Part shown: piece by piece, positions 25,191-37,310 of the stretch | Position numbering within the stretch: the stretch's first letter is position 1 | Layout of the letters: the number at the start of each line of letters is the position of its first letter | Source: Pseudomonadales bacterium | GTDB lineage: Bacteria; Pseudomonadota; Gammaproteobacteria; Pseudomonadales; UBA7239 | Length of the DNA: 64,000 nt | Assembly (NCBI GenBank): GCA_046347205.1 | Contig: JAXMGN010000001.1 | Coordinates: 181,226 to 245,225, forward strand | Reading direction: 5' to 3' | Position numbers and translations under genes: made by a program | The notes under the pieces: generated by a model | Told to the model about the DNA's origin: nothing | The model's input: only the letters and a program-made list of their open reading frames with translations | The model's database searches: none

Positions 25191-26975
25191 TTAGAAGGTG
25201 TATTTTACGTTAAGTGAAACATTGTCGCGGTCTGTCCACAAATTGTTAGGACCACTGAAATCGCTGTAGTAGCCAGAAAATTTCCAATGCTCCAAATAGG
25301 TAAACTCAGCACCCACACTCCACCACAAGTTGTGTTCATTGTAGTTGAATGTTGAGAAGCTGCCATCAATGCCGTAGTTCACAAAGAACGGAATGGTCAG
25401 ATCTACACCTTCAAATACGTTCTTGTATTCAGGCATAAACTGTACGCTCATGCCTTCGCCGTATTTAGTAAACGCACCAAGGTGGGCAAACTGCAACTCG
25501 TCATCTGAATAACTACCCACATACCAGCCACCCAATTCGCCCACTAAAGTAGCCGTATCCCATAGTGCATTGGGCTGGAAGATGTATGTGCCGCCGATAT
25601 TAACATTATGAATTTCTGCACGGTTGGGCCAACTAAATGTGGCAGCATTTGCCAAAGTATTGGCTGTTGTCATATCGACAGGCCACTGGTTAAAACCAAC
25701 TGCTGCCAAATAGCTTGCATCCCTACAGTGCTGCCTTACTAAATCTTTGGCTCTACATGCGGGCACAATAGGTGCGTTGGCGCGATAGGAATACTCAGCA
25801 CCCACCTGAACACCACCAACAACTGTATTCAATGACATCCCGTACAAGCGAATATTGTCAAAATAGCTAATGCTGTACTTGGATGTATCAAATCCAGGAG
25901 CAGTCATCATCTGCGCTTCCGCCATGTTATTGGCAGCCCAAAACATAGGGTATTTATCTGTGTAATTGACAATGTAAGCCCCTAACTCTGTGCCTTCACC
26001 GACTGTTTGCCTAACCGCAAAGCCAAACTGCTTGTTGTTGTTTGGGTTGTGCTCTACACGATCCATGCCAGCACCATTCGAGAACGGTCCAGCAATAAAG
26101 CGATCACCATCAATAAAGTCCTGCATTTCAAAGAAGGAGCCCGTTGGGAACAGCGTAGATTTAATCCACTCGTATTGCCAATAAGCTTCAACAACTGTGC
26201 TATCCGTTACAGCAAGCGAGCCATAGACCGCCCCCGTAGGCAGGAACACTTCTTTCAGCTCAGCACCAGGCACCGTTGAAGCAGAAGAGTCAATGCGGTT
26301 TTGCGCAAAAGCGATACCACCTTGCAGCATTAACGCTTCACCCCAAGTGATTACTTGACGACCCACGCGAACATCTAAGCTATGACCGCCCAAATCAAAG
26401 GAACCATAAGCATACGCATCCAAAAAGCGTGCCTTATAGCCCATGGTGTGCTTGTATTCGTCATCCCAATGATTGACAGAATTGATCTGATTCGCCGCCA
26501 ACTGATTATTCGACCCGTTGGCACCTATGTTGTAACCATAGTTATAGAGGTACTTGCCAGACCAATTAGGTCTTCCAAATGGAACAGAGTCATAAAAAAT
26601 TTGCGGCCTTAAAAAGAGGCCAAGATTTTGGTACGTGATATTGATGTCAGAGAGGATGCCAACGCGGTTAGACACCGTATCCCACTTATCGTAGTTACGC
26701 GTACCGTCATCAGAGTTCATGCGCTGTACAAGATCCTTGAATTCGATGTTTCCAGCAAATGCCTTTGCTTTATTCATATCGATTGTGCCGCCCATCAAAT
26801 TCTTATCGCGACCATCTACGCGCCACTGACGACCGTAAGTAATGGTGGTATCCACATCGACTTTCAAATCGTCGGAAACTTGAAACTCCAATGCATTCAC
26901 TTGCAACGAGAGAGGCAGCAAGCTGGCAACCAGCATCATTTTTACCGCTCTGATCGACCGATTTTTTGTTTTCAT
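25191..26975 (-). CDS. DUF1302-family outer-membrane beta-barrel
   Basis: Signal peptide, NSDDGTRNYDK, VGRQVITWGEAL, ELKEVFLP, TDRDNVSLNVKYTF (terminal Phe). SD before ATG 26975. Confidence 0.85.
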   Translation of the reverse strand: MKTKNRSIRAVKMMLVASLLPLSLQVNALEFQVSDDLKVDVDTTITYGRQWRVDGRDKNLMGGTIDMNKAKAFAGNIEFKDLVQRMNSDDGTRNYDKWDTVSNRVGILSDINITYQNLGLFLRPQIFYDSVPFGRPNWSGKYLYNYGYNIGANGSNNQLAANQINSVNHWDDEYKHTMGYKARFLDAYAYGSFDLGGHSLDVRVGRQVITWGEALMLQGGIAFAQNRIDSSASTVPGAELKEVFLPTGAVYGSLAVTDSTVVEAYWQYEWIKSTLFPTGSFFEMQDFIDGDRFIAGPFSNGAGMDRVEHNPNNNKQFGFAVRQTVGEGTELGAYIVNYTDKYPMFWAANNMAEAQMMTAPGFDTSKYSISYFDNIRLYGMSLNTVVGGVQVGAEYSYRANAPIVPACRAKDLVRQHCRDASYLAAVGFNQWPVDMTTANTLANAATFSWPNRAEIHNVNIGGTYIFQPNALWDTATLVGELGGWYVGSYSDDELQFAHLGAFTKYGEGMSVQFMPEYKNVFEGVDLTIPFFVNYGIDGSFSTFNYNEHNLWWSVGAEFTYLEHWKFSGYYSDFSGPNNLWTDRDNVSLNVKYTF

Positions 26976-27255
26976 TATTTCTCCACCCAATATTTAAGAA
27001 ATATGTCATTCCGATGCGTGCCACACCGTTACTCGACACGCAGTAAGAGTCACGGTGCGGGATTAAGCCAGAAAAAACCGTAAAATGCAAAGCAATATTT
27101 TGCTGCATTTTCAATGACTAACCCCCTGAAACTCACCTATATTGTTACCATTGGTTACACAAATGTTTTTTTACCTGGGTCATTCGCACACACTTCGTCG
27201 TGACTGTATTTTTTTGTTTATCATAGCCGCCTCAAAATACCGCAATACATACCCC

Positions 27256-27897
27256 ATGAGCACCCGAATCATTATTGCTGACGACCACCCGCTGTTTCGA
27301 AATGCCCTATGCCAGGCCGTTAAGCAGGTCGTGACTGACGGAGATATTCTGGAGTGTGACAGTATCGACTCTCTGGAAAGCCTGCTCGCCGAACAAAGTG
27401 ATATCGACTTGATTCTGTTGGATCTGCGCATGCCTGGCGCCAACGGCTTTTCTGGCTTGGTACTCATTCGAGGGCAATATCCAGATATCCCTGTGGTCGT
27501 TATTTCTGCCAGTGATGACCACAACATCATGCAGCGTGCCATGGAATACGGCATTGCGGGTTTTATTCCCAAAGCGTCCGATTTGAGTCAAATCGCTGCT
27601 GCCCTTCAGACTATTTTGAACGGATCACTGTGGCTCCCTGCACAACTTCCACCCTCATCAGACAACACAGAACGCGCATTTGCGCAGCGCCTCAAAACGC
27701 TAACACCGCAACAATTACGCGTGTTTATGATGTTGACCAAAGGCCTTCTCAACAAGCAAATTGCCAGCGAAGTCAATGTTTCTGAAGCCACCGTACGCAC
27801 CCACATGACAGCTATTTTTCGCAAGCTGGGCGTGAGAAACCGCACACAAGCGGTGCTAGCGGCGGGTTATTTAAACATTGAAGAACCAACAACGTAA
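27256..27897 (+). CDS. LuxR/NarL-type response regulator (ErdR/CrbR-like)
   Basis: IIIADDHPLFR, LLDLRMPGANGFSGL, GFIPKAS, LTPQQLRV...LNKQIA HTH. Start ATG 27256. Confidence 0.9.
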   Translation: MSTRIIIADDHPLFRNALCQAVKQVVTDGDILECDSIDSLESLLAEQSDIDLILLDLRMPGANGFSGLVLIRGQYPDIPVVVISASDDHNIMQRAMEYGIAGFIPKASDLSQIAAALQTILNGSLWLPAQLPPSSDNTERAFAQRLKTLTPQQLRVFMMLTKGLLNKQIASEVNVSEATVRTHMTAIFRKLGVRNRTQAVLAAGYLNIEEPTT

Positions 27898-27913: not shown

Positions 27914-29773
27914 CTACAGCGATGACATCAACGCACGCAGTTTTGCAGGCTTGACCGGCTTGGCCATAAATAAATAGCCGCGATCCTCTACTAACCTACG
28001 AACATCCTCTGTATTGTTTGCGGTGATAATCAGAACCGGCAACGTTTTTTTTGACCAGCGAACCAAACCAGCCGCCACATCCAAACCCGTGACACCATCA
28101 TCCAACTGATAATCGGCAATTACCAAGTCTGGCGACGATGCTTGCAGGGCCTGCGTAGAAGACTCGGTATCGCACGCCGTCGCCACCGTACAGCCCCAAC
28201 CTTCTAGCAACGCTCGCATGCCTGCCAACACATTGGGCTCATTATCAATACACAACACCGACAACGCCAAGCTACCGCCGGCACTGGCTAACAGCACTGG
28301 CGGTGCAGATGGCACGACATGACTCGACTCTGCCACTGGCACATCCACTGAGAAAACTGAACCCTGTTTAGGCCATGAGCGCAAATGAATGGAGTGATGC
28401 AACAGCCGAGAAATACGGTCAGCGATGGCCAAGCCTAAACCCAACCCTCTTTCGCCTTTATCATGTTCCGGCGTTTGTAATCGACGAAACTCAAGGAAAA
28501 TTTCACTGCATTTATCAGCAGGAATACCAGGGCCGGTATCCCATACCTCCACGCGCAAAATATTCCCCAAACGACGACAGCCCATTAACACACGACCATC
28601 GCTCGTATAACGCACGGCATTGGACAGAAAATTCTGCAAAATACGACGCAATAAATGGGGATCACTGCGCACAGCAAGGCGCGTCTTCACAACACGAAAA
28701 TCCAAGCCGCGTGTGCTCGTTAGTGCAGTAAACTCTCTACCCAATTGATCGAACAAATCTTGCAGATAAAACACTTCTCGCTTGGGTTCTATCACGCCAG
28801 CATCTAAGCGAGAAGCCTCCAACATGCTGTTGATCAACGCATCGGCTGCCTGTAAAGACAGCACAATATTTTCAGAAAAAGATTGCAACTCACTGTCTTT
28901 TGTTTTTTGCCCAAGAGCCGAAGCAAATAGCGAAGCTGCATTGAGCGGCTGCATCAAATCATGACTTGCCGCTGCCAAAAATCTTGTTTTTGATAAATTG
29001 GCCTGCTCTGCATCTGATTTAGCCAATTCCAATTCCTGCGTGCGTTGCTGTACGCGCAACTCCAAGGTTTCATTCGCTGCACGCAACTGGCGCTCCAATT
29101 CTTTGTGCGCGGTAATATCGGTGTAGCTGGTGACAAATCCACCACCCGGCATTGGATTGCCGCTGACCTCTAACACACGTCCTTCTGGACGATAGCGTTC
29201 AAAATTGTGTGGATTGCCTTCCTTTAAGTAGCGGATTCGTTTTTCAACTTCTGTTTCCAACTCATCGGGATGACAGCCTATTTTTTCTAAATTAAAACGA
29301 ATGAGGTCCGCAACTGGCCTACCTGTTCTTACATACTCGTCTGGATATTCAAAAAACTCCAGATAGCGCTTATTCCACGCGACCATACGCATTTGCTGAT
29401 CGACGACACTGATGCCTTGCGAAATGTGTTCAATCGATGACTGAACCAGCTCCTGCATAAATTCAAAAAAGAAGCGTGCGCCGCTGATGATACTCAGCAC
29501 GTCAGCAATTTGCACCGCACCGCGCCCAACAAAAGCGCGCACCATATTGCCTATTGCGGACGATTCCGTATTTCCAACCGAGTGACAAATGATTTCTTCC
29601 GCCACATCAATATCGAAAACAGAAACCGCAGCATCAGGATCAAAACATTTTTTTGCAAGAGCATACGCATCTTGAAACCGCAGCATCGCTTCATCAGGAG
29701 GCATAAACCCCTGAGCAAAACCAATCAGCTCTTTTAAGGCAACAGGCGCTTGATTATCAGAGGATGCCACCAC
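27914..29773 (-). CDS. Soluble hybrid sensor kinase (STAC-like, PAS, HisKA/HATPase, REC)
   Basis: QGISVVD...VAWNKRY PAS, AASHDLMQPL H-box, NFLSNA, DTGPGI, GLGLGL, and REC (IDNE...ADYQL...KPV). No TM segment; GTG start with AAGGTGG SD. Confidence 0.9.
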   Translation of the reverse strand: MVASSDNQAPVALKELIGFAQGFMPPDEAMLRFQDAYALAKKCFDPDAAVSVFDIDVAEEIICHSVGNTESSAIGNMVRAFVGRGAVQIADVLSIISGARFFFEFMQELVQSSIEHISQGISVVDQQMRMVAWNKRYLEFFEYPDEYVRTGRPVADLIRFNLEKIGCHPDELETEVEKRIRYLKEGNPHNFERYRPEGRVLEVSGNPMPGGGFVTSYTDITAHKELERQLRAANETLELRVQQRTQELELAKSDAEQANLSKTRFLAAASHDLMQPLNAASLFASALGQKTKDSELQSFSENIVLSLQAADALINSMLEASRLDAGVIEPKREVFYLQDLFDQLGREFTALTSTRGLDFRVVKTRLAVRSDPHLLRRILQNFLSNAVRYTSDGRVLMGCRRLGNILRVEVWDTGPGIPADKCSEIFLEFRRLQTPEHDKGERGLGLGLAIADRISRLLHHSIHLRSWPKQGSVFSVDVPVAESSHVVPSAPPVLLASAGGSLALSVLCIDNEPNVLAGMRALLEGWGCTVATACDTESSTQALQASSPDLVIADYQLDDGVTGLDVAAGLVRWSKKTLPVLIITANNTEDVRRLVEDRGYLFMAKPVKPAKLRALMSSL

Positions 29774-29788
29774 GTTACCACCTTACGA

Positions 29789-31393
29789 TTACGCTTCAGC
29801 GGGCAGCTTGCGACCAAGAATCAAATCCGAGCATTTTTCACCGATCATCATGCACGGCGCATTGGTATTGCCGCCAATAAGCGTTGGCATAATGGATGCA
29901 TCCGCTACACGCAAACCTTCAATACCACGCACGCGTAACTCAGCATCTACCACGGCTTGCTCATCACTACCCATTTTGCAAGTGCCAACGGGGTGATAAA
30001 CCGTTTCACACACTTGGCGCAAAAATTCACGAATTCTTCCTTCATCAGTCAGATGTTTATCAGGGCGCGACGGCTCACCCATCAAGCCATCCCAGGCTTT
30101 AGCTTGCGCAATGTCGCGCACAATTTCATAGCTGCGCTGTATCACTTTCCAATCGTGTTCATTGTCGAGAAAATTAAAATCCACTAATGGTGATGCAAAT
30201 GGGTCAGCGCTACCTGGCAATACCGAGCCTCGGCTTTGTGGACGCAACTGACAAGCGTGAATCGACATACCGTGCTGTTTAGGAATAGGGTCAATCAAAC
30301 CGTGCATCAAAATAGGAATAAAGTGCAGTTGAATATCGGGAATAGCTAAATCGGAAGAAGATTTCACAAAACCGCCCGCTTCAATCATATTGCAGGCTGC
30401 AATACCTTTGTTGAGCACAAAATATTCAAAGGCGGTTTTAATTTGCAGTGGAATTTGTGTTGCCGCCGCATTCATGGTGATAGGTTTAGTGCATGTAAAA
30501 TTAGCCAGAATATCCAAATGCTCTTGCAGGTTGTGGCCTACACCGGGCAAATCTTTTAGCACTTTGATACCGGCGCGTTCTAAATCTTCTTTGCGGCCAA
30601 TACCGGATGTTTGCAAAATATGTGGCGACTTAATTGCACCGGCTGACAACACCACTTCACGCTTGGCTTCCGCTACACAAGTCTTGCGACCCTGTTTATA
30701 TTCAACACCCGTTGCGCGACTGCCATCCAATAAAATACGCGTGACATGCGCACCCGTTGCGATAGTCAAATTAGGGCGTTTGCGCACTTCCGGCGTAAGA
30801 AACGCCACCGCCGAACTGGAGCGTTTGCCGTTGCGCAGGGTTGCCTGGTAGCGTGCAAAACCTTCTTGCTGCTCACCATTAAAATCATCCGTGGCGGAAT
30901 AACCCAGCTCCAAACCCGCTGCAATAAATTTGTCGTACAAAATATTGTCGCAAGGCGCATCAGAAACTTTTAACCCGCCGCCGACACCGTGGTAACGCGA
31001 TCCGCCACGCACGTTGTCTTCTGATCGTTTGAAATAAGGCAGCACTTCGTTGTAAGACCAACCGGTATTCCCCAATTCACTCCAGTGATCGTAATCCCAT
31101 TGATGACCGCGGATATACACCATGCCGTTCAAACTACTGGAGCCGCCCAACAACTTTCCACGCGGCACATAGATTTTGCGATTGTTCAGTGCGGGTTGCG
31201 GAACGGTATACATCTGCCAATTCATTTTGTTGCTTTTTAAAACTTCAGCTGCACCACCCGGCATATGCACCATTGGGTTGTTATCTTTTGGTCCGGCTTC
31301 CAACAATAGCACTTGGTGTTGTGAATTTTCTGACAAACGTGCCGCCAAAACACAGCCGGCGGATCCAGCCCCGATCACAATAAAATCAAACAT
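29789..31393 (-). CDS. GMC-family FAD oxidoreductase (AlkJ/choline dehydrogenase-like)
   Basis: GAGSAGCVLAARLSE, RGKLLGGSSSLNGMVYIRG, YHPVGTCKMG, GGNTNAP. Confidence 0.92.
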   Translation of the reverse strand: MFDFIVIGAGSAGCVLAARLSENSQHQVLLLEAGPKDNNPMVHMPGGAAEVLKSNKMNWQMYTVPQPALNNRKIYVPRGKLLGGSSSLNGMVYIRGHQWDYDHWSELGNTGWSYNEVLPYFKRSEDNVRGGSRYHGVGGGLKVSDAPCDNILYDKFIAAGLELGYSATDDFNGEQQEGFARYQATLRNGKRSSSAVAFLTPEVRKRPNLTIATGAHVTRILLDGSRATGVEYKQGRKTCVAEAKREVVLSAGAIKSPHILQTSGIGRKEDLERAGIKVLKDLPGVGHNLQEHLDILANFTCTKPITMNAAATQIPLQIKTAFEYFVLNKGIAACNMIEAGGFVKSSSDLAIPDIQLHFIPILMHGLIDPIPKQHGMSIHACQLRPQSRGSVLPGSADPFASPLVDFNFLDNEHDWKVIQRSYEIVRDIAQAKAWDGLMGEPSRPDKHLTDEGRIREFLRQVCETVYHPVGTCKMGSDEQAVVDAELRVRGIEGLRVADASIMPTLIGGNTNAPCMMIGEKCSDLILGRKLPAEA

Positions 31394-31493: not shown

Positions 31494-33896
31494 TTATTTC
31501 TCTACTTTTCCGCCCTTGGGCAATAGGAAATGCGCCAAGGCCGGCAGTAACGTCAATGCGCCCACCATATTCCAGAGGAACATAAACACCAGCAAAATAC
31601 CCATGTCTTTTTGGAATTGGATAGCAGACCAATACCAAGTTGCCACACCAAAAGCCAGCGTCAAACCGGTAAAGCTCACCGCTTTACCTGTGGTTTTGAG
31701 CGTCATCAAATAAGCATCACGCAATGATTTGCCTTCTTTGAAATAACTTTCCATACGACTGTAGATATAAATACCGTAATCCACACCCACACCGACACCC
31801 AAAGTAATTACAGGCAGCGTAGCCACTTTGACACCGATACCCAGTTTTGCCATCAAGGCTTCACACAAAATGGAGGTCAATGCCAAAGGACCAAGAATAC
31901 ACAACATTGCCTTGATCGATGGGAAAGTAAAAAACACCAGCGCCGCGACCACGGCATACACCAACCACAACATTTTGTTTTGTGCGGAGTGAATTTCTTG
32001 GTTTACCGCAGCAGCAATACCCGCATTGCCTGTCGCCAAACGAAATTGAATATCCGCTGTATTATGTTTATCAGCAAAATCTTTTACCACTTTAGCTACA
32101 CGATCCAAGGTTTCCGCCTTGTGATCTTTGAGGAAGGCAACCACCGGCGCAAAGCTGCATTTCTCGTTCACTAGCCCCATATCAGCCGTGATATTAAAGG
32201 AGCCATCAATGGCTTCCTGATTGCGCCCCAAAGTCATCCATTTGATGTGGCCTTCCGTCAAACCTGCAATAAAGTTTTTCGCCACAAACGCAGCGGAAGC
32301 GGTGGCCTGCACGCCCTCGGTATTATTCAGCGCCCACTCCAAATCATCCATTGCTTCCATGTTTTTTTGCTTGAAACATTCGCCGGGAACACTGGTCACC
32401 ATGACCACAAACAAATCCGAACTGGTGGCGTAATTTGACGTTACAAATTTTACGTCTTTGTTGTACGTTGAATCAGGGCGCAGCTCTGGCGAACCTTCTG
32501 CAATATCCCCGATTTTGAGGAACTGTCTTTCATACACGCTGTAAACCGCCAATGCGCCGGCAAATACCAAAGCGACAATCGCCCAACGCGACTCTGTAAA
32601 TTTAGCCAAGAACAACCAAATTGGCGAATCATGCTCTTCACTCAGCTGCATGTGCTTGATACCAGATGGTGCAATACCGGAATAAGACAGCAAGATAGGC
32701 AGCAGCATCAGCTTCAATACAATCAAGACGCCAGTACCGATACATGCGGTAAATGCCAGTTCTTTGATCGCTGAAATAGGGATCAACACCATCGTTAAAA
32801 AACTAAATGCGTTGGTCAACAAAGCGGTGATGCCAGGCAAATAGTTGGTGCGGAAAGCGCGACGGCTGGCTTGCAACTTGTTGTGCCCTGCCGCCATCTC
32901 GACCGCCATTGCGTTTACATATTGCACGCTGTGGCTCACGCCGATAGCCACCAACAAAAACGGCACCAACATAGAGAACAAACCAATGCCGGAAAACACT
33001 TCAACGTTTTCAACAATGCCATTCACTTTTACTGGCACATTGCCGTAAGGCACACTGAAGTGCGACATCACACTCAGAATGCCCAACATCCACACCACGG
33101 CAATCACTGATGTGAACAGTGGCATCAACGCTGCACGCCAGCAACGCGCATACATATAGAGCAACACGATAGTAATCAGTAAGGCAATACCACCAAAAAT
33201 AACAATCCCACTCGAACCGGTAATAAAATCACCAATCATCTTCGGCTCACCGATGATGTAGACGTGATATTTGCCGTTGTATTGCTTGTTTATGTCGGTG
33301 CGAATATCTTCCAAGATGTTACCGAGATCTTGGAAATCAATCGTATCACCCGCTTTATGGTCGCGCGCCAAATCATCGTTGGGATACGTTGAAAATACAT
33401 ACGACTCCACAATGGACGATTTGAAGTTATCGGAAATCAGACGCCCAATTTCAGTTGAGCGAAACACATTTAATTTAACGCGCTCCAAACTCTCTGGACT
33501 GCCGTCGTATTCGCCTGGAATCAAACGGTCGCCATCAAATCCTTGCGGCGTCACAGCCTGCCAACGCACGGACGGCGCCCACATCGAACGCAAAGAAGTG
33601 CGGTCTACACCATTAATATTGAAAACTTTATCGTGGACATTCTGCACTACTTGCAGATATTCCTTGTCAAAAATATCGCCCTGTGTATTTTCTATAGCAA
33701 TTTTGAAAGACAAGCCTTTTTGTGTAAGGTCATCCAACCGACTAAACATATTTTGCAAATATTCATGTTGCATCGGCAGCATTTTTTCAAAGCGCGCATC
33801 AATTTTGATTTTTGTTGTTTCGAACCCAAAATAGAGCGTCAAAACCGCAATAATCACCAGCCATATCGGCCGGTGATTAAAAATTAGCTTCTCCAT
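31494..33896 (-). CDS. RND/MMPL-family transporter
   Basis: Two 1+5 TM repeats with periplasmic loops; AIGVSHSVQ, GVGVGVDYGIY, GKAVSFTGLTL. Likely start ATG 33896. Confidence 0.88.
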   Translation of the reverse strand: MEKLIFNHRPIWLVIIAVLTLYFGFETTKIKIDARFEKMLPMQHEYLQNMFSRLDDLTQKGLSFKIAIENTQGDIFDKEYLQVVQNVHDKVFNINGVDRTSLRSMWAPSVRWQAVTPQGFDGDRLIPGEYDGSPESLERVKLNVFRSTEIGRLISDNFKSSIVESYVFSTYPNDDLARDHKAGDTIDFQDLGNILEDIRTDINKQYNGKYHVYIIGEPKMIGDFITGSSGIVIFGGIALLITIVLLYMYARCWRAALMPLFTSVIAVVWMLGILSVMSHFSVPYGNVPVKVNGIVENVEVFSGIGLFSMLVPFLLVAIGVSHSVQYVNAMAVEMAAGHNKLQASRRAFRTNYLPGITALLTNAFSFLTMVLIPISAIKELAFTACIGTGVLIVLKLMLLPILLSYSGIAPSGIKHMQLSEEHDSPIWLFLAKFTESRWAIVALVFAGALAVYSVYERQFLKIGDIAEGSPELRPDSTYNKDVKFVTSNYATSSDLFVVMVTSVPGECFKQKNMEAMDDLEWALNNTEGVQATASAAFVAKNFIAGLTEGHIKWMTLGRNQEAIDGSFNITADMGLVNEKCSFAPVVAFLKDHKAETLDRVAKVVKDFADKHNTADIQFRLATGNAGIAAAVNQEIHSAQNKMLWLVYAVVAALVFFTFPSIKAMLCILGPLALTSILCEALMAKLGIGVKVATLPVITLGVGVGVDYGIYIYSRMESYFKEGKSLRDAYLMTLKTTGKAVSFTGLTLAFGVATWYWSAIQFQKDMGILLVFMFLWNMVGALTLLPALAHFLLPKGGKVEK

Positions 33897-34021
33897 TCTT
33901 TTTTCTTCGTCACCGTAACGGTACGGCTCACCGTATTGACGCGCTGCTCCAGCCATACTGCTCAACCTCTAGCTATAATTAAAGTTATTGTTTTGTTAGA
34001 TCGAAAACGGAGAACTCTGTA

Positions 34022-35293
34022 TCACAGACTGGCAGGGGGTACGATCTCTACACCACCGGCTCCGACCAGAATGTAATTGCCGTCCGCTGCCGCTGTTACA
34101 GAAGCAACTGTCAATCTATTTTTGCGTACATTTTCTTGGAAGGTGCGCCCACCATCACGACTTCTCAGGAAAGCGCCATCATTACCGACCGCTAACACAG
34201 TATCTTTATCAACAAAGAAAACAGTGTTGATGTTCTTATGCAAAGTTTCTGCAATTTGTTTCCAATTGGCACCGCGATCAACCGAGCGATACATCACACC
34301 ACGCAAGCCGGCAATAAAAACTTCGTTATCCGACACAACATTGATTGCAAAAAATGACCCATTTTCAGGATCGGGGGACTCCAACTGTGTCCAGCTGGCA
34401 CCAGCATTCGTGCTGCGATACACATGCCCCGCTTCACCGGCGATGTACATGAGATTGCCTTTGCCAACGATGGCATTGAGGTGGTTGCGATCGGGATTGT
34501 TCAAGCGATCAGCAATGCTCACCCAAGTGGCGCCGCCGTCAGTGGTCATGATCATTTCACCAAACGCGCCCACGGCGTAGCCGGTTTGCACATCGCGAAA
34601 CCAAACATCCATCAACGGGTTGGCAACCGTGTTCGTTAGTGCGTCTTTCGCATCGGACAACGCCGATTCTGCATCGGCAATTTTGTCATCCAATTCAGAC
34701 ACCATGGCTTCCACTTGGTCATGCGCGCCATCGTCAGCTTCGCCCGCTGTCTCCTCTTCACTGCCAGTAGCCACGCTTGAATCAGCTGGTTTCAAGCCAT
34801 CCAATTGATCCTCTGCTGCTTGCTTATTGGCTTTCAACTCCTTCAATTTAGCTTCCAATGCCGGAATGCTATCTGCCATGCGTTTACGCGTAAATTTCAA
34901 CCCGTCTAATTGAATAGCCCAAGTTTTGCCGGCATCGGTGGTATGCAGCACCAATTCATCGTGCCCCACTGCCCAACCTTCTGTGGGCGAGATAAAGAAA
35001 ACAGCGTTCAGCATCGCCCGCGTTGGCACGTCTGCTTGCTGCCAAGTTTTGCCATTATCGTCTGACGTGGCGATATGTCCGCGCTCACCTACCACCACAA
35101 GACGATCACCCGCACGGACAATATCTTGTAAAAGAGACTGTGCGACTTTTGCGCTTTTAATTGCAGGTTTTTGGCTACTCACCGTCGCATCTTGTGCCTG
35201 CGCAGCGACCGCAGCAAACAGTAAAAGAGCGATAGTGCCCACATTGCGCAACGAGGTTGCAAAGCGAACGTAGGATGCGGTTTTTTTATTCAT
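34022..35293 (-). CDS. YCF48/BNR-repeat periplasmic protein
   Basis: Signal peptide and repeated SxDxGKTW boxes (VVGERGHI, WAVGHD, AVGAFG). Likely start ATG 35293. Confidence 0.85.
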   Translation of the reverse strand: MNKKTASYVRFATSLRNVGTIALLLFAAVAAQAQDATVSSQKPAIKSAKVAQSLLQDIVRAGDRLVVVGERGHIATSDDNGKTWQQADVPTRAMLNAVFFISPTEGWAVGHDELVLHTTDAGKTWAIQLDGLKFTRKRMADSIPALEAKLKELKANKQAAEDQLDGLKPADSSVATGSEEETAGEADDGAHDQVEAMVSELDDKIADAESALSDAKDALTNTVANPLMDVWFRDVQTGYAVGAFGEMIMTTDGGATWVSIADRLNNPDRNHLNAIVGKGNLMYIAGEAGHVYRSTNAGASWTQLESPDPENGSFFAINVVSDNEVFIAGLRGVMYRSVDRGANWKQIAETLHKNINTVFFVDKDTVLAVGNDGAFLRSRDGGRTFQENVRKNRLTVASVTAAADGNYILVGAGGVEIVPPASL

Positions 35294-35586
35294 TCTGATG
35301 CGCCCTGAATCATCTACAGTAAAACATGCCGACGCTCTCTCAATCACAAAAACTGAGGAACACGACATACCATGAAGCCGTGCCAGCAGAAACAGGCGCC
35401 GCAAAGCCAGTCAGACGGGCTTTTTATTGCGAGACTTTCTACTTGCGAGGAATTAAAAATTCGCAGCTTGCTAAAGTGATGCCACTTCGATTGCGGCCTT
35501 CCTCCACAACTGAAGCTGCCGCAATCTTACCCGTACATATCCTGTAGGTAAACCGCGTCAGGCACCGCCAAGACCAGCTAAACCTC

Positions 35587-36933: not shown

Positions 36934-37107
36934 TTAAGCCGTTTGTACCATTTCAAAATCGTATTTGCTGACACCACACTCTGGGCATTCCCAATCTTCG
37001 GGTACGTCTTCCCATTTGGTGCCAGGTGCTATCCCTTCTTCCGGCAGACCTTTTTCTTCGTCGTAAATAAACCCGCAAATCACACACTCAAACTTTCTGT
37101 AAGCCAT
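36934..37107 (-). CDS. rubA: Rubredoxin (AlkG2-like)
   Basis: CVICGFIYDE...WEDVPEDWECPECGVSKYDF; start ATG 37107. Confidence 0.93.
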   Translation of the reverse strand: MAYRKFECVICGFIYDEEKGLPEEGIAPGTKWEDVPEDWECPECGVSKYDFEMVQTA

Positions 37108-37310
37108 AACGCCTCCACACAAAAGATCTCAAAACCGGCAAAGCGCCGCATTATAAACAGATTGCCTTAGGATAACCCACTGCGACAATCCGCTGCACTG
37201 CTGCACCAGCGGTCATTGTATGCAGCAAATACTGCGTCACCCTGACCTTTGTCAAAGGTTCGTTCACCTTTACACTGAGCAGCCAAATATTTCCCCTCAC
37301 TCAAAACACC

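Follow-up and report, generated by a model that had tools for sequence, protein, structure and literature searches.

The locus examined here raises the question of what becomes of a CrbS/MxtR-type signalling system when the kinase has no transporter of its own, and of which genes its partner regulator then serves. CrbS/MxtR and CrbR/ErdR, a hybrid kinase with SLC5 and STAC domains and a LuxR regulator, constitute the acetate switch of Vibrio and Pseudomonas. The window, that is the whole stretch of 64,000 nucleotides analysed from a Pseudomonadales bacterium, encodes a soluble hybrid kinase with the domain order of CrbS/MxtR (STAC-like, S-helix linker, PAS_7, DHp, CA, REC) but, unlike it, without the SLC5 domain. 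The kinase and its parts are located as follows:

27914..29773, minus strand: soluble hybrid histidine kinase of 619 aa (STAC-like domain, helical linker, PAS_7, DHp, CA, REC)
29510..29746, minus strand: STAC-like four-helix domain, residues ~10-88 (AF2 and hhalign)
29426..29509, minus strand: long linker helix from STAC to PAS_7, residues 89-116, with the near-invariant FFEFMQELVQSSIEH
29093..29434, minus strand: PAS_7 domain, residues 114-227 (Pfam PF12860, E 1.4e-39)
27929..28993, minus strand: HisKA (residues 261-326), HATPase_c (371-481) and receiver (506-615) domains (Pfam)

The kinase is called as an open reading frame with a GTG start. The TAA stop of the upstream GMC gene is followed by 15 nt (TCGTAAGGTGGTAAC, including AAGGTGG) and then by this GTG; the frame is open for just 622 codons in total, only three of them upstream of the start, and therefore no 5' part has been lost. 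The same gene measures 611-637 aa in 15 of the 16 genomes of the window's family, and the N-terminal 13-TM SLC5 (SSS) domain is absent from the product in the window and likewise in those 15. The maximal Kyte-Doolittle 19-residue mean is 1.76, at residues 491-509, which run from the linker between CA and receiver into the start of the receiver domain; given that a genuine CrbS-type comparison protein peaks at 2.70 and has 99 windows above 1.6, the kinase has no credible TM segment. The 622-codon frame, the hydropathy and the spacing to the GMC gene thus confirm the first-pass annotation, which had described a 619-aa kinase with a clean start and no TM segment. The kinase motifs are intact in the translation, namely the H-box (SHDLMQPL), the G-boxes (DTGPGI and GLGLGL) and the receiver signature (IADYQLD...KP).

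Pfam assigns no domain to residues 1-113 (a search with residues 1-121 at E<=10 returned noise only), nor does it report a STAC match in CrbS-type proteins. Residues ~10-116 are nevertheless collinear with the STAC and linker segment that lies C-terminal of SLC5 in CrbS-type kinases. Searched against 1.8 billion representatives, a profile of residues 1-116 retrieved just seven proteins at E<=0.001; these include a 1164-aa SLC5-PAS_7-HK-REC protein in which residues 549-654 match profile positions 7-115. Within the order (301 genomes), this profile matched 25 ORFs of 1169-1356 aa, always at positions ~8-115. When the STAC portion was compared without the linker, hhalign aligned it to the CrbS STAC segment over 58 columns, covering helices 1-3, with Prob 95.5 and E 1.6e-8, and the kinase N-terminus aligns collinearly with the CrbS segment, one loop indel aside. 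The likeness of this STAC-linker-PAS stretch to CrbS/MxtR, put forward in the first-pass annotation, is therefore real according to both the profile matches and hhalign. The position of the segment relative to PAS also agrees with that described for STAC (PMC5715377, PMC4834066).

In the AF2 model of the 80-aa domain (pLDDT 88, pTM 0.77), helices are predicted at residues 13-21, 28-39, 52-66 and 71-84, with a topology of two hairpins separated by a 12-residue loop and followed by a long helix; the linker is modelled as a helix over residues 86-115 and aligns with the S-helix segment of CrbS. Korycinski et al. are said to have described STAC in 2015 as a four-helix bundle of ~70 residues, made of two alpha-hairpins with a central loop of about nine residues.

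Concerning the rest of the protein, CrbS-type ORFs of 1157-1217 aa share 45-50% identity with the whole PAS_7-HK-REC core (positions 1-503). In a quick LG+G4 tree of this core (46 sequences), the transporter-less kinases (18/18) form one clade with an SH-aLRT of 99, nested among SLC5-fused CrbS proteins with an SH-aLRT of 92. The nearest fused relatives are neighboured by acs, an SSF/ActP gene, DUF294 and RNase T genes, and a convergent LuxR regulator. Sequence comparison thus supports the view that the kinase belongs to the CrbS/MxtR lineage and lost SLC5 while keeping the STAC-like segment; the single nested clade fits one ancient loss of the transporter. Profiles, core identity and tree together bear out the initial proposal of a CrbS/MxtR-like kinase that retains STAC without SLC5, and the natural transporter-less CrbS-type kinase is a real, conserved variant.

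Two other kinase groups deserve mention. NahK/ErcS' proteins (PA1976-type cytoplasmic PAS hybrid kinases) are also cytoplasmic, and the HK-REC part of the soluble kinase passes the NCBIfam model NF041832 (NahK/ErcS C-terminal) with 441 bits against a cut-off of 400; yet a real SLC5-CrbS protein exceeds the cut-off of this model too (410 bits), and the NahK/ErcS label is therefore non-discriminating. The full-length NahK model NF041831 gives 390 bits against a cut-off of 1500, ErcS'-like proteins of 757 aa from related genomes align only over the HK-REC part, and no NosP neighbour accompanies the kinase, the gene upstream being the GMC oxidoreductase. An ordinary ErcS/NahK identity, which the first-pass annotation had named among the outcomes that would count against it, is rejected on these grounds. 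The second group is that of the CbrA/CbrB transceptor, whose SLC5-STAC-PAS-HK kinase is a family relative of the soluble one, but differs in having no receiver domain, an AtoS/NtrB-like kinase core and a sigma-54 activator as partner, and is not its closest relative. A CbrA-like protein of this architecture (985 aa) is encoded elsewhere in the same genome, as found by a search with a CrbS SLC5 domain, so that the idea of a genome devoid of any SLC5 sensor was discarded. The PF00474 (ActP-type) model finds no match in the genome, although the SLC5 domains of genuine CrbS-type proteins escape this model as well; the genome yielded no CrbS-like SLC5 protein that could serve as a stand-alone partner.

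The genes surrounding the kinase, and the promoters proposed for them, are the following:

25191..26990, minus strand: DUF1302 outer-membrane protein gene (Pfam E 4.9e-123), divergent from the regulator
27060..27091, minus strand: sigma-70-like DUF1302 promoter TTGCAT-N17-CTTAAT, a conserved block in a 10-sequence alignment (inferred function)
27256..27897, plus strand: convergent CrbR/ErdR-type response regulator (REC and GerE/LuxR HTH; Pfam/NCBIfam)
29789..31393, minus strand: GMC flavin oxidoreductase of the choline/alcohol dehydrogenase family (PRK02106, 657 bits against a cut-off of 605), directly upstream of the kinase
31494..33965, minus strand: HAE3/MMPL-type RND inner-membrane transporter (domain models)
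34022..35293, minus strand: Ycf48-like BNR beta-propeller, likely starting at ATG 35293 (MNKKTASY..., signal peptide) rather than at 35404 as in the ORF list
35435..35554, minus strand: conserved promoter TTTACC-N17-TAAGAT and structured 5' leader of the Ycf48-like/RND/GMC/kinase operon

As in CrbS/MxtR systems, the kinase is accompanied by a convergent CrbR/ErdR-type regulator, 16 nt away, and nests in the same group. The regulator likely starts at ATG 27256 (213 aa; homologues have 211-221 aa) and not at TTG 27142. It scores 256 bits on the ErdR model, within the 233-299 bits of regulators beside true SLC5-CrbS genes, which agrees with the partner recognised at the outset. Unlike in CrbS/MxtR systems, the pair sits in a DUF1302/Ycf48-like/RND/GMC locus and not in an acetate locus; the genome has neither actP nor another PF00474 gene, and acs is distant.

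Three genera share the gene order KIN-<RR-DUF1302>, and within the window's family the regulator invariably diverges from a DUF1302 gene, a pair kept in three of its genera. In the window's genus the kinase is the last gene of the Ycf48-like/RND/GMC operon, the full MFS/Ycf48-like/RND/GMC/KIN block being present in all ten genus contigs (10/10); the deep branch P0049 has an MFS/Ycf48-like/RND/KIN block with MlaC replacing GMC. DUF1302, Ycf48-like/BNR and HAE3/MMPL RND genes lie in the window and two DUF1329 genes elsewhere in the genome, so that all four components are present of a system whose DUF1302/DUF1329/BNR/RND genes are co-fit and needed for growth on Tween 20 and butyl stearate (bioRxiv 10.1101/072470; 10.1101/2020.07.04.188060). 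In P. putida, a LuxR-type regulator adjoins DUF1302/DUF1329 (10.1101/2020.07.04.188060). The window resembles this DUF1302/DUF1329/BNR(Ycf48-like)/RND system with the LuxR regulator PP_0767 in that DUF1302, Ycf48-like and RND genes surround the kinase and regulator, but here regulation falls to a phosphorylatable protein of the CrbR/ErdR type, which has a soluble CrbS-type kinase of its own. The pair is located in a lipid/hydrophobic-substrate uptake locus, and the DUF1302 gene is the likely regulated target of the regulator.

Footprinting of the regulator/DUF1302 spacer revealed conserved promoters. The only candidate operator in the same spacer (GTAACC-N4-GGTAAC) was dropped, being confined to the five closest species. 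By eye, no convincing ACTU-like box ([GT]AC-N4-GTC-like) was seen upstream of acs (115 nt), DUF1302 or the operon, nor one common to the DUF1302 and operon promoters. The 5' leader of the operon has no match in Rfam; near-consensus hexamers and a structured leader imply that control of the operon may not depend on the regulator.

The reading favoured here, with a probability of roughly 0.6, is that of a cytoplasmic kinase of CrbS/MxtR lineage that senses through PAS_7 and whose regulator has been rewired to DUF1302 and envelope genes. The ancestor of the soluble clade would have lost the N-terminal 13-TM SLC5 domain and kept everything C-terminal of it. PAS_7 would sense an intracellular cue, a metabolite or the redox/quinone state, as in the laboratory truncations of CrbS/MxtR and CbrA; the kinase would autophosphorylate and then phosphorylate the neighbouring regulator, with the receiver domain of the kinase serving as modulator or phosphate sink. 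In the window's family, the regulator would have exchanged its acetate targets (acs, actP) for the divergently placed DUF1302 gene, with the remainder of the DUF1302/DUF1329/Ycf48-like/RND envelope system, which published fitness data tie to growth on fatty esters, probably under its control as well; in the window's genus, the kinase would in addition be co-transcribed with the Ycf48-like/RND/GMC genes. Most likely, the STAC-like domain persists for structural reasons, capping the signalling helix at its N-terminus or helping it to dimerise, and not as the reader of a specific transporter.

Three lines of evidence lead to this reading. First, adjacency of an RND gene to the kinase is limited to the window's genus and P0049, and is missing in sister lineages. 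Second, the best-conserved parts of the kinase are PAS_7, its most conserved sensory module (75-96% identity within the family), and the linker (57-100% across the soluble clade), whereas the STAC-like domain is the least conserved and fastest-evolving part, its identity dropping from 81% to 20% across the clade. Third, engineered truncations are active: CbrA without its SSS domain is soluble and still signals, and MxtR/CrbS without its TMDs autophosphorylates and is inhibited by ubiquinone (PMC7918813), while deletion of STAC from CrbS gives no phenotype (PMC5715377). These engineered proteins have the domain content of the soluble kinase and keep kinase activity and signalling (PMC7918813); they are laboratory truncations, whereas the soluble kinase is natural, conserved at family level and placed in a new genomic context.

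An unlikely alternative is that the kinase is simply the CrbS orthologue of this lineage and still runs acs via CrbR, its envelope neighbours being incidental. No genome of the window's family encodes an SLC5-fused CrbS, acs occurs once in the genome, the resemblance of the regulator to ErdR equals that of canonical partners, and the closest relatives are canonical kinases in acetate contexts. Against an unchanged function, however, acs lies ~750 kb away with no ACTU-like box seen by eye in the 115 nt 5' of it, neither ActP nor any other PF00474 protein is encoded, and the KIN-RR-DUF1302 linkage is kept across genera. Moreover, one genome of the sister family carries a fused CrbS-type gene together with the soluble kinase, which also led to the rejection of a strict mutual exclusivity of the two forms.

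Less probable still is a split transceptor, in which the STAC-like domain would dock in trans on the cytoplasmic side of the co-encoded HAE3/MMPL RND protein, or of a different membrane protein such as the MFS or CbrA-like one, and report transport of a hydrophobic substrate. The first-pass annotation had suggested that the kinase may read the upstream RND/MMPL protein, a proposal founded on gene adjacency, which the survey of homologue neighbourhoods did not uphold: the kinase is co-operonic with RND in every contig of the genus and stands beside Ycf48-like/RND genes in P0049, but P0050, the sister family and two further genera within the family lack this link. In CbrA, STAC reaches into the base of the transporter with the tips of its helices 3 and 4 (PMC13022988); the corresponding h3-loop-h4 tip (SVGNxESxSIGNMVRAFV) is well conserved in the window's family, where it is the best-conserved part of the STAC-like domain and bears a small family-specific insertion, so that a docking role is conceivable. 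Along the same line, STAC exists as stand-alone proteins (PMC4834066) and can therefore act without covalent fusion. On the other hand, the sister family has no such tip insertion, no domain is less conserved than STAC when the clade is compared, and CrbS without STAC shows no phenotype, just as truncated kinases work transporter-free (PMC5715377, PMC7918813). If true, the split transceptor would couple the flux of hydrophobic substrates non-covalently to a CrbR-type regulator, a signalling principle undescribed for STAC or RND proteins.

As to the identity of the domain itself, the first-pass call of a STAC-like N-terminus stands as regards hhalign to the CrbS segment and the four AF2 helices, but was not matched to a solved STAC structure: Foldseek searches of both AF2 models against the PDB, a method for which small helical bundles are hard, gave nothing at E<=0.001 and left the STAC entries (5A1Q, CbrA cryo-EM) unlisted. 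PDB sequence searches with profiles A3, A2 and A6 returned nothing relevant, and hhalign of the combined profile to the genome's own CbrA-like STAC was non-significant (Prob 4.7), albeit in the correct register. The turn between helices 1 and 2, for which the motif LGPx(x)A has been described (PMC4834066), reads FMPPDEA in the kinase, with P and A kept and G changed to P; CrbS-type relatives have F-[IML]-G-x-x-x-[AST] there. It is very improbable, despite these null searches and the partly retained motif (MPPDEA), that the first ~90 residues form a generic helical cap and resemble CrbS only through the shared linker and PAS flank, for the linker-free hhalign match over helices 1-3, the collinear CrbS alignment with its one loop indel, and the predicted two-hairpin topology and position before PAS, which fit published STAC (PMC5715377, PMC4834066), all speak against it.

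To sum up with regard to the cytoplasmic, PAS-based sensor favoured above, STAC is widespread but has so far been studied almost only as the joint between SLC5 transporter and kinase; here the transporter is lost, yet STAC is kept across at least two bacterial families. This offers a soluble, tractable system for what STAC does alone, be it as cap, dimer module or docking site. The kinase further lets one test whether CrbS-type signalling arises in the cytoplasmic PAS domain, and how the CrbS/CrbR pair is rewired from acetate genes to another regulon. For the marine degraders of hydrophobic substrates, it places a candidate regulator beside their poorly understood DUF1302/DUF1329/Ycf48-like/RND envelope system.

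The kinase, a transporter-less hybrid histidine kinase of the CrbS/MxtR lineage, starts 15 nt behind the stop codon of the upstream GMC oxidoreductase gene, and those 15 nt hold AAGGTGG. The reading frame comprises 622 aa in all; as it is open for just three codons 5' of the GTG, no 5' part of the kinase has been cut off.

27914-29773, minus strand: kinase ORF, 619 codons, GTG start
Kinase residues 114-227: PAS_7 (Pfam)
Kinase residues 261-326: HisKA (Pfam)
Kinase residues 371-481: HATPase_c (Pfam)
Kinase residues 506-615: receiver, REC (Pfam)

Residues 1-113 match no Pfam domain, even at E<=10. The top 19-residue hydrophobicity window (1.76) spans the CA-REC linker and the start of the REC domain; in the same scan, 99 windows of a true CrbS-type protein exceed 1.6. 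The clean start and lack of a transmembrane segment noted in the first-pass annotation are thus borne out. The translation shows an intact phospho-accepting His box, intact ATP-lid glycines and intact Asp/Lys motifs in the receiver.

Some 50 proteins of 600-650 aa with the same architecture, encoded in metagenome bins of marine Cellvibrionales/Pseudomonadales, keep this N-terminus. When a profile of residues 1-116 was run on 1.8 billion representative proteins, seven sequences matched, among them two more kinases of ~620-655 aa and a 1164-aa protein, polytopic in its N-terminal half, whose residues 549-654 align to profile positions 7-115; the latter and its Marinobacter and Hahella relatives are CrbS-type SLC5-PAS_7-HK-REC kinases. 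Searched in 301 genomes of the order, the profile found ORFs of two sizes, 611-671 aa (11) and 1169-1356 aa (25), every match covering the identical span. So that the shared linker could not drive the score, hhalign was limited to the part N-terminal of it (19 soluble sequences versus 11 CrbS segments), giving Prob 95.5 and E 1.6e-8 over 58 columns in helices 1-3; in the joint alignment the two sets run collinearly, interrupted by a single small indel in the h3-h4 loop. The N-terminus therefore does track the STAC-linker segment of CrbS, as the first-pass annotation had suggested.

AlphaFold2 predicts helical hairpins at 13-21/28-39 and 52-66/71-84 with a 12-residue loop between them, then a long helix (86-115) continuing into PAS_7 (pLDDT 88 and pTM 0.77 for the 80-residue model). 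The predicted topology fits that published for STAC, in which two hairpins and a central loop make up a four-helix bundle and an LGPx(x)A turn joins h1 to h2 (PMC4834066, PMC5715377); in the kinase this turn reads MPPDEA. Foldseek gave no significant PDB match with either AlphaFold2 model; a sequence-profile search of the PDB with the domain also found nothing, and hhalign against the STAC of the genome's own CbrA-like kinase gave the correct register with a non-significant score. The label STAC-like has two supports: homology with the segment of CrbS so named in the literature, and the concordant predicted topology.

The kinase is probably a cytoplasmic sensor, the reading favoured because, among the transporter-less kinases (the soluble clade), the linker and PAS_7 are the most conserved parts in domain-by-domain identity (PAS_7 75-96% within the window's family) and the STAC-like domain the least (dropping from 81% to 20%), and published truncation experiments point the same way. 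Signalling persists in CbrA without its transporter, and MxtR/CrbS without transmembrane domains retains autophosphorylation, which ubiquinone inhibits (PMC7918813); CrbS minus STAC shows no phenotype (PMC5715377). The first-pass annotation proposed that the kinase may read another transporter in trans. In CbrA, the STAC h3-h4 tip plugs into the base of the transporter (PMC13022988), and within the window's family this tip (SVGNxESxSIGNMVRAFV), which bears a small insertion, is the best-conserved part of the domain; yet the sister family has neither the h3-h4 loop insertion nor an RND neighbour, and such reading in trans is improbable.

Outside its own family, the PAS_7-HK-REC core aligns best with SLC5-fused ORFs, over its full length, at 45-50% identity and with 460-512 bits. 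A maximum-likelihood tree of 46 cores unites all 18 transporter-less kinases in a single clade (SH-aLRT 99) nested among the fused, SLC5-carrying kinases (support 92), deeper nodes being unsure owing to the quick LG+G4 search and to long branches in some other rows; the call of a CrbS/MxtR-like kinase without SLC5 accordingly stands. The nearest fused relatives lie in textbook CrbS/CrbR surroundings (acetyl-CoA synthetase, SSF/ActP-type symporter, a DUF294 nucleotidyltransferase and RNase T pair, convergent LuxR regulator). Within the window's family, the soluble form occurs in 15 of 16 genomes, including 10/10 high-quality ones, and fused CrbS in none; one sister-family genome has both forms. 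The simplest reading of these sequence comparisons is that the SLC5 domain was probably lost once, long ago. The sister-family soluble kinase (L035, L032; P0052) is longer, at 645-671 aa, due to an extended segment between PAS_7 and DHp. An ordinary ErcS'/NahK kinase is out, since 757-aa ErcS'/NahK-like proteins align to the kinase over HK-REC alone; the NCBIfam "NahK/ErcS family" C-terminal model (cut-off 400) gives 441 bits for the kinase and 410 for a true SLC5-CrbS protein, so that this label fails to separate the types.

The 213-aa regulator, convergent with the kinase, scores 256 bits with the ErdR model, inside the 233-299 bits reached by regulators that adjoin fused CrbS genes, in agreement with its earlier assignment to the ErdR/CrbR type. 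Its listed ORF start looks too long (excess 27142-27255); homologues and REC domain position make ATG 27256 the likely start. The gene orders were compiled from called genes and from tblastn matches to the window's proteins.

Gene orders around the kinase
Window's genus, 10 contigs: MFS, Ycf48-like, RND, GMC, kinase, <regulator, DUF1302>, <guaA
Two other genera of the window's family: kinase, <regulator, DUF1302>
Deep branch P0049: Ycf48-like, RND, MlaC-like, kinase, <regulator
Sister family: kinase, <regulator, adjoining TetR, acyl-CoA dehydrogenase or DUF1631 genes
Lineage P0050: kinase adjoining a divergent acyl-CoA synthetase-type gene

Kinase and regulator are the stable unit; linkage to DUF1302, Ycf48-like and RND genes is recurrent, not universal. 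The proposed association with such loci holds in part, with Ycf48-like/RND genes in the window's genus and P0049 and DUF1302 in three genera, but no Ycf48-like/RND genes in the two other genera of the family, in the sister family or beside P0050. Directly upstream of the MFS gene, at about 36950-37250 (minus strand), lies a rubredoxin gene (MAYRKFECVICGFIYDEE...), conserved in every contig of the genus; this gene and the one for the GMC (AlkJ-like?) oxidoreductase are a hint that alkanes or long-chain alcohols are metabolised.

Upstream regions also show conservation.

35435-35554, minus strand: conserved near-consensus promoter TTTACC-N17-TAAGAT and leader, upstream of the Ycf48-like gene

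The conserved leader of ~90 nt behind this promoter is part of a roughly 200-nt untranslated stretch. Its hairpin (35482-35518) has a loop, GGAGGAAGGCC, invariant across 9 species and compensatory substitutions in 7 of 17 predicted stem pairs; the leader has no match in Rfam, and may serve post-transcriptional control, of the Csr/Rsm type or another. The listed Ycf48-like ORF start looks too long (excess 35294-35404), ATG 35293 being most likely (MNKKTASY..., signal peptide). Between the regulator and DUF1302 promoters, GTAACC-N4-GGTAAC (27144-27158; two GTAAC repeats at 10 bp spacing) is kept in the five closest species only, more distant genus members having AAGATAWATGTCGTA at about its position; either could be a candidate operator. 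The transcribed DUF1302 leader (27020-27060, minus strand) contains an imperfect inverted repeat, CCGTTACTC-N12-GAGTCACGG, and other species have different hairpins in the equivalent place.

As a cytoplasmic sensor, the kinase would read a metabolic or redox cue through PAS_7 and phosphorylate the CrbR/ErdR-type regulator, whose most likely target, in the window's family, is the divergent DUF1302 gene, perhaps along with the kinase's own envelope/oxidation operon. DUF1302, Ycf48-like and RND genes, together with DUF1329, are a known co-fit set, required by P. putida on Tween 20 and butyl stearate, and in that species a LuxR-type regulator adjoins DUF1302/DUF1329 (bioRxiv 10.1101/072470; 10.1101/2020.07.04.188060). 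Two DUF1329 copies lie elsewhere in the genome, and the single acs gene is ~750 kb distant. The genome encodes a 985-aa CbrA-like SLC5-STAC-PAS-HK kinase without receiver (G000:C1:685372-688329; locus L011 2373-5330), whose gene adjoins those of a HaeIII-type restriction enzyme and a cytosine-5 methylase; neither a stand-alone CrbS-like SLC5 domain nor a small stand-alone Hpt protein was seen in the genome. A PF00474 search of the genome returned no gene; this Pfam SSF model misses the SLC5 of the CbrA-like protein and of CrbS-type proteins, and SSF-based censuses therefore undercount such sensors.

In the searchable literature, the founding STAC paper aside, STAC is either a stand-alone protein or placed between SLC5 and signalling domains, and no description of natural CrbS-type kinases with STAC but without SLC5 came to light. 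The kinase is a moderately interesting natural experiment on STAC and on how a CrbS/CrbR pair may be rewired.
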